Shown here: positions 22,157 through 36,479 of the stretch, in pieces
Numbering within the stretch: position 1 is the first letter of the stretch
How the letters are laid out: every line of letters begins with the position of its first letter
IMG/VR virus record: IMGVR_UViG_3300042534_000747
Direction: 5' to 3' (one strand)
Source: a virus
Length of the DNA stretch: 64,000 nucleotides
Program-made: the position numbers and the translations under genes
Notes under the pieces: generated by a model
The model's database searches: none
What the model was told of the DNA's origin: nothing
Seen by the model: only the letters and a program-made list of their open reading frames with translations

Positions 22157-22420
22157 TTATTTTGCTTTTTTAAATGTAAATGTTTTTCCTGAAATTTCAA
22201 TTAATCTCCATCCTATTAAGAATAATACCATACTTGCAATCCATAATGCAATGAATGCATATCCCATTGATTCAGATGTGATTTCACCAAAGAAAAGTGT
22301 AGCAATTGAAGTAGAAAGAATATCAGAAGGAAAGGGATTTACCCATGAAATAGCACAAAATACTATAAAGTATCCTGCTTTAGCATATTGAGTTTTTGTA
22401 AATTTTTTATTTAAATTCAT
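22157..22420 (-). CDS. Small 2-TM membrane protein
   Basis: 87 aa, two hydrophobic segments, basic termini. Confidence 0.75.
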   Translation of the reverse strand: MNLNKKFTKTQYAKAGYFIVFCAISWVNPFPSDILSTSIATLFFGEITSESMGYAFIALWIASMVLFLIGWRLIEISGKTFTFKKAK

Positions 22421-22455
22421 ATTATCATTTCAAAATAATTAGGGTTAATCCCTAA

Positions 22456-22680
22456 TTACTTTTTAAACATACCTTCAACAAATTCTCCACCAATCTGACC
22501 AACTAGAACTACAACAGAAACAATTGCGTATCCTAATGGCTCTGCACTCTCTACAAGACCTGCCATAGAACCTAAAAATAGACCTGCTGCACCTGCAATA
22601 ACTATGATTGCACCCTTTACAACATCTCCTGTACCAATCTTGCCATTTCCATCAAAGTCTACTGATTTACCTTTTGCCAT
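22456..22680 (-). CDS. Small Gly-rich 2-TM protein (pilin, capsid or holin-like)
   Basis: 74 aa from MAKGK after AGGTGA RBS; DFDGNGKIGTGD leader then two Gly/Ala/Val helices. Confidence 0.75.
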   Translation of the reverse strand: MAKGKSVDFDGNGKIGTGDVVKGAIIVIAGAAGLFLGSMAGLVESAEPLGYAIVSVVVLVGQIGGEFVEGMFKK

Positions 22681-22742
22681 AATTTTTTCACCTTTTATTT
22701 TTATTTTTTTTGTTATGCATAACATGAAGTTATGATTGTGAT

Positions 22743-22910
22743 TTATTTCATATTGAATGGGTTTACTAATGTTACTATTGAAGTCAAACCACCTAATATG
22801 AATACTAGAGAATACTTAGTATAATCTATTTCAAATACTGCAATTAATAATGTTCCTATACAAAGGACAAGCAATGATTTCAATAAATCTGAACTTTTTA
22901 CATCCACCAT
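22743..22910 (-). CDS. Small 2-TM protein (not in ORF track)
   Basis: 55 aa MVDVKSSDLLKSLLVLCIGTLLIAVF...LVNPFNMK, overlaps upstream stop. Confidence 0.65.
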   Translation of the reverse strand: MVDVKSSDLLKSLLVLCIGTLLIAVFEIDYTKYSLVFILGGLTSIVTLVNPFNMK

Positions 22911-33145: not shown

Positions 33146-34324
33146 ATGAGTTTAATAAATAAACATACAGATTCTTATCAATTGTTATCAAGAATTTATA
33201 TAATAGATTCAAATTTTAAAGCAAAGTTTATAGGATTTTATGACCCTGAATGTGGTAAAGAATGGAATTTTAAATATTCTAATAGATTATTCCCTTTAAA
33301 AGATGGGAAAGGTGCATATGATGATATATACAAAGGTCAGAATGCAATTGAATTATCATTTATCCATTATCCATTCGGAACTACAAATGTAGGCAAGACT
33401 ATAAAGATAAATGCACATATGCATACTAAATTTTTTGTATCAACTAACAGTATCAAATTAGATGATGTAATGGTTACTGATAATGATGATATATTTTTTT
33501 ATGCTGATATGCATACAAAACCTAAAGCAATAAATGGTGGACAATTTATGCTTTGTGAATTGACTCCACATCTTTCATCTGATGAATTACAGAGGTTGAA
33601 AGAAAATGCAGGTGAAATTGTAAATTATAAAGAAGCAATTATTAAAATTGAAACTGAGAAAAAACAATTAGAAGCAGATTTATTCTTTGAATATTCAAAA
33701 TCATCTGCATTAAATGCAAGTTTGATTTCATATCAACAACATTCTAATGCACTTTTGAAATATCAAAAAGAATTAGTTAATAGAGTAAAATCATTATCAT
33801 TAGCTGAAGCACATTTATTAAATGAAACAATAAAAGACTTTGAAGAAAAGTTTGATATGAATATTGATTGGAATCAAGTAACATCTAATGTTGTTATGGA
33901 TACAGTATCAAAAGGCAATAACTTAGATAAATTTATTAATATGTCTAATGAGTTGGCAAATTCAAATATTTCAGAAGAAATGAAGAATATAATGATAGAA
34001 AAAGTTGTTAATATATGTGGTATTCAAAAAGTTAAAGAAGTTATTCAGCAAATGGAAATGTCAGGTAATAATAGATTAGCACCTACAAATATGACTGCTA
34101 TGAATATGAGATATTTAGAAGATGTTCAAAATGGAAAATTAAGACCTGATGAAGCTCAACAGTATATGAATAATGCATTTAATGATTTACAAAATAGAAC
34201 TATCAAAAATGGTGATATAAATTCAGCATTGCAAGAAGTAAATAATGATAGAGGATTTTCAACTGATAAATTGTCAATTAAAGATTTGATGAACATACAA
34301 AAAAGTTTAAAAAGTAATGCATAA
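33146..34324 (+). CDS. Hypothetical protein with central coiled coil
   Basis: 392 aa; heptad-rich region ELQRLKEN...EEKF. Confidence 0.8.
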   Translation: MSLINKHTDSYQLLSRIYIIDSNFKAKFIGFYDPECGKEWNFKYSNRLFPLKDGKGAYDDIYKGQNAIELSFIHYPFGTTNVGKTIKINAHMHTKFFVSTNSIKLDDVMVTDNDDIFFYADMHTKPKAINGGQFMLCELTPHLSSDELQRLKENAGEIVNYKEAIIKIETEKKQLEADLFFEYSKSSALNASLISYQQHSNALLKYQKELVNRVKSLSLAEAHLLNETIKDFEEKFDMNIDWNQVTSNVVMDTVSKGNNLDKFINMSNELANSNISEEMKNIMIEKVVNICGIQKVKEVIQQMEMSGNNRLAPTNMTAMNMRYLEDVQNGKLRPDEAQQYMNNAFNDLQNRTIKNGDINSALQEVNNDRGFSTDKLSIKDLMNIQKSLKSNA

Positions 34325-34335
34325 TGGTGAATTAA

Positions 34336-35085
34336 ATGATTGAACAAGATGATGATTATGAAATTTCACCAAGAATGGAAAGAGATTTAGATTATAAATC
34401 TCCTAATGATGAACTGGAACTTAAAAAACGTCAGGAAATAGTAAGTAGATTTAACAATGCATCTTTTGATTCAGATGTTAGATTTTTAATAGACACTTGT
34501 AATAATGCAGAATATGGAGAATTCGCTTTTAAGCATAGAATTGGCTTAAATAATGATGATTTCCATAATTTTTTTCAAACTTTGATGGATATTAATGAAC
34601 ATTTAGCAATGTGTCAATCTATTTTAGATAGTTACATTACTTTTAGTAACAGTACTCCAAATTTTCAAAATTTACAAAATGCAATATTCCATTTTTATGA
34701 TTTTATTGCAAAACAATCATCCAGAACATTTTATTTTGTAATGTTAGAAAAATACGGAATTCATTATTTTGAAGCAGGTACTTTTAAGAAACATGTATAT
34801 GGATTATCATTTTTATTGTCAAGATTGAAAGGAACTTTAGCAGTTGCATCATGGTATATTATAGATATTGAATCACAGACCAGACAAAGTAATAGTGGTG
34901 GATTTGATAGATTTGGTGGCAGTGGTGGATTTGATAGATTTGGTGGTAATAACTTTGGTAGTGGTGCATATGGTAACTATGGAAATAGTTATGGAAATTA
35001 TAATCCTGCCTATAATAATATTGGTGTAAATAGAACAACTACAAATATAAAAATTCACCGTGATATCGGTGATGCTAATGATTAA
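34336..35085 (+). CDS. Hypothetical protein with G/N/Y/F low-complexity tail
   Basis: SGGFDRFGG x2 encoded by a 27-bp tandem duplication (34894-34947). Confidence 0.8.
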   Translation: MIEQDDDYEISPRMERDLDYKSPNDELELKKRQEIVSRFNNASFDSDVRFLIDTCNNAEYGEFAFKHRIGLNNDDFHNFFQTLMDINEHLAMCQSILDSYITFSNSTPNFQNLQNAIFHFYDFIAKQSSRTFYFVMLEKYGIHYFEAGTFKKHVYGLSFLLSRLKGTLAVASWYIIDIESQTRQSNSGGFDRFGGSGGFDRFGGNNFGSGAYGNYGNSYGNYNPAYNNIGVNRTTTNIKIHRDIGDAND

Positions 35086-35096
35086 TAGGTGAAAAA

Positions 35097-36479
35097 ATGG
35101 CAGTAAAAACGTTTAATGCAGGTACTAATAATGCAAATACTCCATTTAGAAATAGAATAATACCAAATGTACAGTATGTTCCTGATTTTAATGATTATGA
35201 ACCTGAACCTATTGTACATGATATTGATGCACCAAGATGTATTAAATTAGGTTATCTTTTAAATTGGGAAACAGGGGATGTAGAATTAGATGAAAATGGT
35301 GAAAATGTCTTTTTCTATTTACCTTTTGACCATGAATCTCATGAAACATCTATTGCTTTTATAGGAGCGAGTGGTTCAGGAAAAACAGTTGGTGCAACAC
35401 GTTTAATTGATGAATTAAGAAGAGATTATGGCAGATGTGTATTTATTTTGGATAGTAAAAATCAGTATATTAATATGAATAATCCTAATCCAGACACTAA
35501 GCATATTGAAATATTAGATGAAGCAGGTGAAGTTCCTGAAGGTGTAGAAAATGTAAAAGTATACTTGCCTAGACACGTAATTAAGAAACAGGGAACTAAA
35601 TTTTGTAAATATAAATATAATTATGATGAAACATGGACTATTAGAACAGGTGATGTTGATGCAACTAGTTTACTTTTATTAGGAAACAAGGATACAAATG
35701 GAAAAGATTATATTAACACACTTGCAGGAATTGTAGATGATTTAAAAGAAGATGAAAGAGAAAATGGAATACCATTTACTATTAATGTTTTAATGGATGC
35801 TTTCAAATCTGAAATAAAACATATGCAAGCTAAAAAAAGAAGTATTGATACTTTAATGGTCATGGTTGATAATCTTCAAAAAGCAGGAATCATAAGTGAT
35901 GATGGTAATTCTGTAATGGAACTATTTCATAAACCAAAAGCAAAATATATTCAATCAAAAGATATGTGGAAAACTACAGGTAAAGGTGATGTTGTAATCT
36001 TTAATACTGCTGCTTCAGGAGCACAGGATATTCAGACTAAAGGTTTAATTACTAATATGATTACATCTATTTGTGATAAATTAAAATTAGAAATAGATAC
36101 TAAATTAAGGATACCATTATATAGACCTATCATAGTCATTGAAGAAGCAAGTCAATATTATGGAAAACATTCTGATGTTAATATGTTACAGGCAATGAAT
36201 AGTATGCAGAATGTTATGGGAAGAACAGCAGGAATATTAAGAATTTATATTTATCAGAATGATAAACAACCTGCTGATGGTTTACTTGATAATGATAATT
36301 TGCAAGTAATTATAAGATTATATCAAAGTATTAAATTACCACCTTCAGATTATTATCCACAGGGAAAGGATGTTTATAAAAAAGGGCTTGCTAGAGTACA
36401 GATTAGGAATGTAACTTTCATGCAAGATGCTGAATGGCTAGTGCAAATACTTCCACCAAAATGTGAGATAGGTTCTTAA
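35097..36479 (+). CDS. FtsK/HerA-superfamily P-loop ATPase (DUF87/VirB4-like)
   Basis: Walker A GASGSGKT, Walker B IVIEEAS, Arg finger GRTAG, IYQ. Confidence 0.88.
   Translation: MAVKTFNAGTNNANTPFRNRIIPNVQYVPDFNDYEPEPIVHDIDAPRCIKLGYLLNWETGDVELDENGENVFFYLPFDHESHETSIAFIGASGSGKTVGATRLIDELRRDYGRCVFILDSKNQYINMNNPNPDTKHIEILDEAGEVPEGVENVKVYLPRHVIKKQGTKFCKYKYNYDETWTIRTGDVDATSLLLLGNKDTNGKDYINTLAGIVDDLKEDERENGIPFTINVLMDAFKSEIKHMQAKKRSIDTLMVMVDNLQKAGIISDDGNSVMELFHKPKAKYIQSKDMWKTTGKGDVVIFNTAASGAQDIQTKGLITNMITSICDKLKLEIDTKLRIPLYRPIIVIEEASQYYGKHSDVNMLQAMNSMQNVMGRTAGILRIYIYQNDKQPADGLLDNDNLQVIIRLYQSIKLPPSDYYPQGKDVYKKGLARVQIRNVTFMQDAEWLVQILPPKCEIGS

Follow-up and report, generated by a model that had tools for sequence, protein, structure and literature searches.

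Two divergent gene blocks occupy the locus (Table 1), a minus-strand block of 13 genes (22157–31188) and a plus-strand block running from 31417 to 37260. They lie in the 64-kb window, the part of a 202.5-kb contig that was read directly, and structure models were made for two proteins. A membrane block had been placed at 22157–36479 in the first-pass annotation; its open reading frames are positioned correctly, but the unit continues past that end to 37260. At least one strong hydrophobic segment was found by Kyte–Doolittle scan in each of the 13 minus-strand products, and a membrane segment or a signal peptide is predicted for all 13. This is far above chance, since about a quarter of proteins are assumed to be membrane proteins. 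The small two-helix membrane proteins described earlier were recovered by the same scan, and the polytopic 423-aa protein shows at least six hydrophobic blocks, several with room for two helices. This protein has no family match in Pfam, PHROG and NCBIfam scans, and its homolog in the relative G001 is 34% identical. The promoter-like motif of the control region is found again at 29067 and 27714; the window contains eight copies against 0.35 expected, all of them upstream of minus-strand genes.

Table 1. Features of the locus, in order of position (TM, transmembrane).
Feature	Position	Strand	Evidence or remark
87-aa small membrane protein, last gene of fusexin operon	22157..22420	-	homolog in L023
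89-aa 2-TM protein with DFDGNGKIGTGD loop	22456..22725	-	homologs in G001, L023
55-aa 2-TM protein	22743..22910	-	hydrophobicity scan
162-aa protein, signal peptide or N-terminal anchor	22898..23386	-	homologs in G001, L023
221-aa polytopic protein	23334..23999	-	conserved H-[DE]-x2-3-H and N..P....SDG
184-aa anchored or secreted ectodomain protein	23996..24550	-	
270-aa CPBP (Rce1-like) intramembrane protease	24535..25347	-	PF02517, E 4e-11
618-aa predicted fusexin-fold (class II fusogen) protein	25348..27204	-	AF2 model, Foldseek, VIA-align
139-aa N-terminally anchored β-rich protein	27197..27616	-	synteny
408-aa N-terminally anchored surface protein	27805..29031	-	homologs in G001, L004/L023
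191-aa protein	29302..29877	-	soluble N-terminal half, hydrophobic C-terminal half; homologs in G001, L004
423-aa polytopic membrane protein, ~6–10 TM helices	29917..31188	-	Kyte–Doolittle
Divergent intergenic control region	31189..31416	.	promoter-like motif GTATATAAAG twice, at 31243 and 31260
140-aa soluble protein, first of plus-strand block	31417..31839	+	homolog in G001
413-aa type I membrane protein	31867..33108	+	conserved in L001, G001, L005, L023
392-aa protein	33146..34324	+	conserved N-terminal β domain, then long helices
249-aa soluble protein	34336..35085	+	Gly/Arg/Phe-rich repetitive tail
460-aa HerA/DUF87-clade P-loop ATPase	35097..36479	+	DUF87, structural match
189-aa protein, N-terminal Cys4 Zn-ribbon	36691..37260	+	conserved after ATPase; beyond 36479

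The 618-aa product had been recognized as a membrane-anchored ectodomain protein, which holds, but its class II fusogen fold had gone unnoticed. It contains a signal peptide, domains I–III (residues ~40–492), an extra β-sandwich (500–573) and a C-terminal part formed by a stem, a single TM helix and a Lys/Gly tail. The best Foldseek match of its AF2 model (pLDDT 70) is archaeal Fsx1 (7P4L, E 6.8e-14), and the best 50 matches listed are all class II fusogens. An independent all-against-all comparison with VIA-align superposed 329 residues on Fsx1 (Z 15.1; model residues 40–492) and scored HAP2 at Z 13.1 and 12.7; in both searches Fsx1 was followed by HAP2, alphavirus E1, EFF-1 and Gc. Non-fusogen VIA-align matches cover only the Ig-like domain III, of ~100 residues. 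Judged by the model, the three domains of the 618-aa protein are folded as in class II fusogens (fusexins), a group to which flavivirus E also belongs, with a C-terminal anchor as in the viral class II proteins and HAP2, and fusogenic activity is predicted. Sequence similarity to Fsx1, HAP2, alphavirus E1 or EFF-1 was not detectable: a Pfam search gave no HAP2-GCS1 match, and the family profile retrieved no Fsx1 or HAP2 chain from the PDB at E ≤ 10. Fsx1, in contrast, was discovered by its HMM similarity to HAP2, and it has three TM helices instead of one. Seven full-length homologs were found, and the class II architecture and membrane anchor are kept in the family across 20–34% sequence identity. 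The family has no conserved cysteine and therefore lacks an equivalent of the domain III disulfide, which is invariant in HAP2 and Fsx1.

The fusexin gene belongs to a tight operon, with the CPBP gene and genes for small membrane proteins on its downstream side. In five lineages the gene for the 139-aa protein immediately precedes it, and in the window the two share 8 nt, at the stop of the first and the start of the second. Flavivirus prM-E, alphavirus p62-E1 and bunyavirus Gn-Gc are class II fusion proteins with upstream companions, and MAR1 is described as a HAP2 chaperone (PMC13601591). As in these pairs, a small membrane-anchored protein is encoded just upstream in every lineage, which makes the 139-aa protein a candidate companion of the fusogen; the likeness is one of gene position, binding between the two is putative, and the known pairs belong to RNA viruses or eukaryotic cells, whereas the element described here is an archaeal dsDNA of ~200 kb.

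The CPBP gene is linked to the fusexin gene in four lineages. Its earlier assignment is borne out by a Pfam score above the cut-off and by residues E146, E147, H180, H221 and N225 (Glu-Glu, His and HxxxN motifs), which are invariant in three lineages; the catalytic motifs are intact. The 184-aa gene occupies a variable slot beside the fusexin and CPBP genes, and its product has no homolog in the relatives compared. Two other labels are weak. The 221-aa protein, proposed to be an M50 protease, has no match in Pfam or NCBIfam, and its HEMIH motif is present in the window copy only, with HDPILH in relatives; by its conserved motifs it resembles a site-2 protease, M50 membership being not demonstrable. 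The 408-aa window copy does carry an archaeal class III (Pilin_N-like) signal motif, ERAVTPVIG, from which a pilin signal had been proposed, but the matches to Pilin_N (E 0.0028) and to TIGR02537 (E 0.0067) do not reach their cut-offs and the motif was not found in the two relatives compared. The 191-aa protein is possibly a membrane-tethered DNA binder.

In the plus-strand block, the 413-aa protein comprises a signal peptide, an ectodomain, a C-terminal TM anchor and a Lys/Gly-rich tail. This second envelope protein shares no homology with the fusexin. The 392-aa gene is always two genes upstream of the ATPase gene, with the 249-aa gene between them, adjoining the ATPase gene in all lineages. 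Residues H74, H91, H93, D59 and D60 of the 392-aa β domain are invariant, and its model matched no known fold in structure searches. A 62-residue helix in a model agrees with the coiled-coil protein noted earlier. The FtsK/HerA-type label of the ATPase is sustained by a DUF87 score of 29 bits (cut-off 23.2) and by TM-scores of 0.62–0.70 against archaeal DUF87/HerA clusters (ESM Atlas structures). Together with a Walker A (GASGSGKT) and an acidic Walker B-like motif (IIVIEEAS), these features liken it to HerA/DUF87 ATPases, from which it differs in its partner genes, the 392-aa and 249-aa genes instead of NurA or T4SS parts. It has no TM segment by Kyte–Doolittle scan. The ATPase is the most conserved module gene (45–79% identity); close homologs number only six in 5.8 billion proteins, and tblastn against the GenBank virus and plasmid collections gave no match. 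Its ortholog in G001 carries an intein, which we take to be typical of essential viral enzymes.

The gene order of the module is common to at least five diverged metagenomic lineages (25–57% identity). The succession 139-aa protein, fusexin, zero to two variable proteins and CPBP recurs in four lineages and the 392-aa/249-aa/ATPase trio in five, the trio and the fusexin block being joined in three. G001, listed by IMG/VR as a viral genome, is complete (183 kb, 127-bp terminal repeat, CheckV 100%). At E ≤ 1 it has no match to Phage_capsid, Phage_portal, Phage_sheath_1, Capsid_NCLDV, Terminase_6N, Terminase_3, Terminase_6C or VirB4; among its large proteins, the matches listed by Pfam and PHROG are confined to genes for replication, repair and modification, and it has no DUF87-type ATPase other than that of the module. 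Capsid, portal and terminase genes had also been reported missing from the window, in agreement with Pfam searches of every ORF of at least 196 aa and PHROG searches of the module. Because the genes stay linked in relatives and the complete relative has no head–tail module, the idea of a dedicated assembly or transfer module withstands the two objections raised with it, unlinked genes and a head–tail module elsewhere in the element. The element is virus-like in its full replisome, RNA-repair kit, tRNAs and IMG/VR viral call. By strong PHROG matches, its replication genes are similar to their counterparts in large tailed viruses, and descent from a tailed virus is therefore possible. Many of its proteins have no annotation in Pfam or PHROG.

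What stands of the first-pass interpretation is a conserved, co-inherited membrane and ATPase module in a large archaeal element that lacks recognizable head–tail genes, the module being the only candidate machinery for particle formation or transfer; the specific analogies drawn with it are not supported. Given the class II fusogen fold, the mechanism moves away from a pilus or channel and toward membrane fusion. We consider it moderately probable that this locus provides envelope, fusion and DNA-loading functions to a virus-like, self-replicating archaeal element of ~200 kb, which is best read as an enveloped or vesicle-type archaeal virus with no capsid (or a novel one). The membrane proteins of the module would first enter the membrane of the host. 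To that site the ATPase, together with its soluble partners, would bring or pump element DNA, roles that are suggested by gene position; and a membrane-bounded particle, a vesicle-like virion, would bud. The fusexin, which the 139-aa protein may guard and the CPBP protease may process, would then merge the particle membrane with that of a new cell, delivering the DNA.

Alternatively, the fusexin could act on the host surface in cell–cell fusion (mating), fusing donor and recipient or forming cytoplasmic bridges through which the HerA-type ATPase moves the element DNA, with no extracellular particle. Fsx1 elements were originally proposed to work in this way ('conjugative-like, cell fusion-dependent'; PMC9259645), although a later report favors budding vesicles (PMC13712861). 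The lack of detected capsid genes in G001 and weak matches of the ATPase to plasmid TraB and TrwB-type translocases fit such a process, whereas the virus-like gene content of the element, the lack of VirB4 or any other conjugation gene found, and an ATPase with no membrane segment disagree with it. Overall, we regard mating as unlikely.

A membrane-containing virion with a conventional, unrecognized capsid is improbable. The module would then supply only the membrane, entry and packaging parts of an internal-membrane icosahedral virus with PRD1-/STIV-like ATPase packaging, or of a highly diverged tailed virus. In double jelly-roll viruses, FtsK/HerA packaging ATPases typically lie beside structural genes, the ATPase has a weak Pox_A32 match in Pfam (E 0.007), and archaeal capsid proteins often escape sequence profiles; the unannotated proteins and tailed-virus-like replication genes also leave room for it, and a capsid of a fold missed by profiles (double jelly-roll, divergent HK97 or novel) is possible in the element. 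Against this, no capsid family was detected in G001, the conserved neighbors of the ATPase are not jelly-roll-like, and at 460 aa this DUF87/HerA-like enzyme is much larger than A32-type packaging enzymes (~200–250 aa). To our knowledge, class II fusogens occur nowhere but in outer envelopes or in cell membranes, which also disagrees.

CPBP proteins often act in immunity, and the slot beside the fusexin is variable, as with host-interaction genes; both would suit a surface-remodelling or exclusion module (adhesion, superinfection exclusion, immunity) in which the fusexin-fold protein is an adhesin with no direct role in transfer. We judge this very unlikely in view of the tight linkage to the ATPase block across lineages, the full class II architecture and anchor kept at such low identity, and the lack of other transfer machinery in G001. 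Finally, type IV secretion, Ced/Ted-like or pilus-based transfer with protease-matured small pilins, to which the first-pass annotation had pointed, draws on the small 2-TM and polytopic proteins and on weak TrwB_AAD_bind and TraC matches in the P-loop region of the ATPase, but can be set aside almost entirely: G001 has no VirB4 match, the ATPase has no membrane anchor of the kind seen in CedB/VirD4-type proteins, neither the M50 and pilin labels nor the maturation of VirB2/CedA1-type pilins by an M50 protease has support, and the class II fusogen points to another mechanism.

The capsid-less enveloped or vesicle-type virus favored here would have counterparts in pleolipoviruses and haloarchaeal plasmid vesicles, whose virions are membrane vesicles that lack a capsid. 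Besides an NTPase, they encode small membrane proteins and a spike that serves in fusion, and they are transmitted by budding and fusion. They are smaller (7–17 kb, and ~50 kb for pR1SE, vs ~200 kb here), their spike fold is different, and no sequence relation to the module was found, with no PHROG matches. Haloarchaeal mobile elements with Fsx1 genes also carry HerA-type ATPases and are likewise large archaeal mobile elements that combine a fusexin with such an enzyme (PMC9259645); according to a 2026 meeting report, an Fsx1 strain buds vesicles that contain the element and pass it on through membrane fusion (PMC13712861). If the favored reading is true, capsid-less spread by budding and fusion parallels these elements. 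Unlike them, the element has no VirB4 or TraG, and its genomes, of 183–202 kb, have terminal repeats and their own replisome, whereas Fsx1 elements are chromosomal insertions of at least 50 kb. A methanogen is a plausible host on circumstantial grounds. The samples containing the element are cold-seep and salt-marsh sediments, in contrast to the mainly saline habitats of Fsx1 elements.

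The central gene of the module encodes a 618-aa protein that gave no match in word-based searches or in sequence searches of the PDB. An exhaustive HMMER scan retrieved seven full-length homologs (20-34% identity), on whose alignment an AlphaFold2 model was built (mean pLDDT 70, with several loops of low confidence). In the Foldseek comparison of this model with the PDB, three chains of archaeal Fsx1 (7P4L) rank first (E 6.8e-14), followed by HAP2 from Chlamydomonas and Arabidopsis, E1 of Semliki Forest virus and of other alphaviruses, hantavirus and nairovirus Gc, EFF-1 and flavivirus E; among the matches listed, class II fusogens fill all of ranks 1-50. 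VIA-align, which is independent of Foldseek and compared 48,161 representatives, also ranks Fsx1 at the top (Z 15.1, 329 residues aligned, model residues 40-492) and HAP2 next (Z 13.1 and 12.7), the Fsx1 and HAP2 alignments spanning 329-335 residues. Non-fusogen matches (Z 11.8 or less) are confined to the Ig-like domain III, of about 100 residues (387-492), which aligns with domain 3 of HAP2 at Z 11.6. Its predicted fold makes the 618-aa protein a class II fusogen. ESM Atlas modelled the same protein poorly (pLDDT 0.43), and the two Atlas searches gave no useful information.

The AlphaFold2 model contains three β-rich domains in the class II topology: a central domain I, an elongated domain II and the Ig-like domain III. 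All eight homologs share a type I membrane topology, with a signal peptide, an ectodomain, a stem and a C-terminal anchor; in the window protein the hydropathy scan places the hydrophobic segments at residues 3-26 and 589-608, the latter within a modelled helix (587-611). An extra β-sandwich (500-573), which could correspond to Fsx1 domain IV, follows domain III, and the chain ends in a single helix and a Lys/Gly tail. Fsx1 differs in having three C-terminal transmembrane helices instead of one, and a six-helix bundle in domain II, where the 618-aa model has only short helices. The HAP2/GCS1 family (PF10699) gave no match at E<=0.01, and in the PDB the family profile retrieved neither Fsx1 nor HAP2 at E<=10, and nor did the single sequence. 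No cysteine column is invariant in the eight-sequence alignment, and therefore the domain III disulfide that is invariant in Fsx1 and HAP2 (PMC9259645) is missing. Because the modelled fold resembles Fsx1 and HAP2 while HMM-level similarity and conserved cysteines are absent and there is one anchor helix, we place the protein in the fusexin structural superfamily as a new sequence family. A sortase-type sorting signal for the CPBP protease, consisting of the C-terminal transmembrane helix and basic tail, was also considered; as no conserved motif precedes the helix, the idea stays speculation.

The window has about 26% G+C and is part of a 202,507-bp contig. Its module comprises 13 minus-strand ORFs between 22157 and 31188 and six plus-strand ORFs from 31417 to 37260. 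The last nine minus-strand ORFs (27616 down to 22157) mostly abut or overlap, with two gaps of 17 and 35 nt. The description of the region as a membrane module in the first-pass annotation was largely right. The hydropathy scan found at least one strong hydrophobic segment in each of the 13 minus-strand products; in the plus-strand block, the 413-aa product has a signal peptide and a C-terminal anchor. By hhalign, neither the 413-aa nor the 408-aa family is homologous to the fusexin family, and the module has no PHROG match that rises above noise. The gap after the ATPase gene, which is unusually rich in G+C, matches no Rfam family and does not fold stably (z -0.56). Outside the module, the window encodes the intein-bearing class II ribonucleotide reductase (RNR), a diverged RNR paralogue, DHH, RlaP, UvrD and TROVE-like proteins, and a disaggregatase-like β-helix protein. 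Two paralogous N-terminally anchored proteins of about 200 aa both match one 194-aa protein adjoining a relative's module; their Cys...His pattern is reminiscent of a papain/transglutaminase-like fold, with no family match.

Features of the window and of its relatives (window positions unless a contig is named; G001 is the complete 183-kb relative)
Feature	Position	Strand	Remark
~200-aa anchored protein	3583-4185		paralogue of 21545-22156
Class II RNR with intein	16860-19658		elsewhere in window
~200-aa anchored protein	21545-22156		paralogue of 3583-4185
89-aa 2-TM protein	22456-22725	-	
'M50' 221-aa protein	23334-23999	-	
CPBP protease	24535-25347	-	
Fusexin-fold protein, 618 aa	25348-27204	-	
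139-aa protein	27197-27616	-	
'Pilin' 408-aa protein	27805-29031	-	
191-aa protein	29302-29877	-	
423-aa protein	29917-31188	-	
413-aa protein	31867-33108	+	
392-aa protein	33146-34324	+	
249-aa protein	34336-35085	+	
HerA/DUF87 ATPase	35097-36479	+	
G+C-rich gap	36480-36690		
Zn-ribbon protein, 189 aa	36691-37260	+	
HNH-repeat gene	48662-50239		elsewhere in window
Disaggregatase-like protein	54904-56679		β-helix
GTATATAAAG copies	27714, 29067, 31243, 31260, 46543, 56722, 59344, 60427		
ATPase ortholog, 755 aa	L003:8368-10635 = G001 172450-174717		intein inside
Giant surface proteins	L001:1-5804; G001 152558-167217		
HNH-repeat gene	L023:4799-6103		adjoins ATPase

Contigs that carry homologs of the ATPase and of the fusexin have the same gene order. 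The trio of the 392-aa, 249-aa and ATPase genes occurs in five lineages, in all of which the 413-aa gene lies directly upstream; a Zn-ribbon gene follows the trio in two. The order 139-aa gene, fusexin, zero to two variable ectodomain proteins and CPBP protease is found in four lineages, and the two blocks adjoin in three (the window, the 183-kb genome and contigs L023/L004). The linkage in relatives on which the first-pass annotation had made its proposal depend is thus present. One of these relatives is complete: a 71-kb Logan contig (L006) bridges both ends of JGI contig Ga0455843_0000014, that is, IMGVR_UViG_3300042535_000037 (G001), of 183,084 bp with a 127-bp direct terminal repeat (CheckV 100%, 36.6% G+C). 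Window 251-37260 is collinear with G001 across the ends of the latter, and 29 of the 90 window proteins have homologs in it. The G+C content differs between the two elements although their core is collinear, which suggests hosts of different base composition.

The CPBP (Rce1-like) intramembrane protease named in the first-pass annotation is well supported: PF02517 matches at E 4e-11 (43.4 bits vs a cut-off of 22.4), and the residues of its EE, H and HxxxN motifs (E146, E147, H180, H221 and N225) are invariant across three lineages. The proposed M50 site-2 protease fared less evenly, as the 221-aa protein has no Pfam or NCBIfam match and its HExxH motif (HEMIH) is found in the window copy only, with HDPILH in two relatives; what stands is a conserved N121..P127....S132-D133-G motif. 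The pilin-signal label of the 408-aa protein is weak, its scores being below the cut-offs of both Pilin_N (18.9 bits vs 25.2) and TIGR02537 (15.9 bits vs 20) and the class III signal motif being absent from the homologs in G001 and L004.

The ATPase is of the FtsK/HerA type, as first annotated, with PF01935 (DUF87) at 29 bits vs a cut-off of 23.2, structural TM-scores of 0.62-0.70 (Atlas) and invariant Walker A and acidic Walker B residues (G90, S92, G93, G95, K96, T97, E349 and E350). It has only six homologs in 5.8 billion proteins (45-79% identity). Its profile retrieved nothing from GTDB species genomes, from JGI metagenome contigs or from IMG/VR, though G001 is present in the last with an intein-split ATPase, and tblastn gave no match in GenBank phage and archaeal-virus records or PLSDB plasmids. 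The intein of the G001 ortholog (Hom_end_hint) is inserted within about 20 residues past the P-loop (window residues 90-97), the tblastn pieces meeting at ~94-99. Free-standing genes resembling HNH-repeat homing endonucleases adjoin the ATPase gene in one lineage and are also present at another place in the window; with the inteins in the G001 ATPase and the window RNR, they indicate heavy selfish-element traffic in these elements. Regarding the partners of the ATPase, neither Foldseek nor VIA-align gave a significant fold match for the model of the 392-aa protein (pLDDT 56). The 249-aa protein has a repetitive Gly-rich tail at its end (SGGFDRFGG twice, then GNYGNSYGNY), unusual in an archaeal element, whose composition suggests nucleic-acid binding or condensate formation. 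Within a few kilobases of the ATPase block, relatives encode giant surface proteins (1690, 2439 and 2425 aa) with LamG, β-helix and Big domains, which are possible adhesins or receptor-binding proteins belonging to the same particle.

At profile level, none of the window ORFs of at least 196 aa has a match among capsid, portal or terminase families, in agreement with the first reading of the region. The complete relative likewise contains no recognisable head-tail module: in six-frame searches at E<=1 there was no match to Phage_capsid (PF05065), Phage_portal (PF04860), the Terminase_6N, _3 and _6C families (PF03237, PF04466 and PF17289) or Phage_sheath_1, and the sole match to TerL_ATPase (PF03354), at E 0.05, lies within an SNF2 helicase. 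For the G001 proteins of 200-1000 aa, the Pfam and PHROG families listed include family B polymerase, clamp loader, RNA ligases, Sak4-like, glycosyltransferases, TnpB, Band_7, methylase and resolvase; no virion family is among the matches listed (the best 25 families per scan, for one Pfam scan the best 25 of 40).

The elements combine a class II fusogen fold, an intact CPBP protease and a HerA-type ATPase in conserved linkage, with no detectable head-tail or type IV secretion (T4SS) genes. We propose that the module builds membrane-bounded particles that would transport the element and deliver it through fusion of membranes. Judging from gene position, the ATPase, the helical 392-aa, Gly-rich 249-aa and Zn-ribbon proteins and the 191-aa protein, of which one half is soluble and the other hydrophobic, would recruit DNA to the membrane or pump it there, the 139-aa protein is a candidate fusogen companion like prM, E2, Gn or MAR1, and the CPBP protease may act on envelope proteins by processing or regulating them. 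The closest precedent is the Fsx1 system, whose genes are carried by haloarchaeal mobile elements alongside HerA, VirB4 and TraG genes (PMC9259645); the present module, in contrast, is unrelated to those elements in sequence and resides on much larger genomes with terminal repeats. The same fusogen might instead serve cell-cell fusion, with no particles made. A virion with an unrecognised capsid is a second rival, on which the Capsid_NCLDV search bears: it covered one double jelly-roll family and gave nothing at E<=1 in G001, and sequence profiles often miss proteins of this kind. Surface remodelling by the membrane proteins is a third. A T4SS- or Ced-like apparatus fits least, as a search of the complete relative for VirB4 (PF03135) gave nothing at E<=1, the module's own ATPase is the only one of DUF87 type there, and the hydropathy scan found no transmembrane anchor in it. 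The idea of an undescribed assembly or transfer module was right in kind, and its Ced/Ted and type IV secretion analogies were not; a literature search found no paper describing the module.

Class II fusogens so far connect the entry of RNA viruses, the fusion of eukaryotic gametes and a single archaeal family, Fsx1, which was found through its sequence similarity to HAP2. The module adds a second archaeal family, recognisable by fold only, in a conserved 15-kb module of 180-200-kb virus-like genomes from anoxic marine sediments that have no recognisable capsid genes. If the elements spread as membrane-bounded particles, fusexins would extend beyond halophiles, the fusogen, its upstream partner, the CPBP protease and the HerA-type ATPase with its partners would form a tractable set for studying vesicle loading of very large DNA, and the 'virus or egg' question of the origin of gamete fusogens would gain new data. 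Further-reaching, and in our estimate rather doubtful, is the reading of these elements as giant (180-200 kb) archaeal viruses, capsid-less and of enveloped or vesicle type, which make up a new group of high rank, replicate with their own archaeal-type replisome and enter methanogen-related hosts by a class II fusogen unlike Fsx1, HAP2 and viral proteins in sequence. Were it true, class II fusion would be an ancient, widespread way for archaeal dsDNA viruses to enter cells, with direct bearing on a viral origin of gamete fusogens.

An archaeal host can safely be assumed because of the Pilin_N-like motif and the archaeal replisome, and a methanogen (Methanosarcinales) is plausible. The relatives were sampled at a cold seep in the South China Sea (PMC9357000) and in salt-marsh microcosms with glycine betaine and trimethylamine, in which the enriched archaeon was Methanococcoides (PMC6716910). 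The RNR gives no host assignment, since no close genomic relative of its N-terminal domain was found.

Two sequence motifs complete the description. In the 89-aa 2-TM protein, the DFDGNGKIGTGD loop resembles an EF-hand/dockerin calcium-binding loop and is kept in two relatives. The exact 10-mer GTATATAAAG occurs eight times in the window (0.35 expected). Each copy precedes a minus-strand gene by 30-110 nt and on the coding strand reads CTTTATATAC, which is TATA-like. The module accounts for four of the eight: two before the 423-aa gene, one before the 408-aa gene and one before the operon in which the 139-aa gene comes first and to which the fusexin gene belongs. Given these upstream copies and the operon layout, the fusexin operon appears to be a single transcription unit of nine genes. 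The motif looks like one promoter class, which the fusexin module appears to share with the disaggregatase-like surface protein elsewhere in the window and with three small genes.
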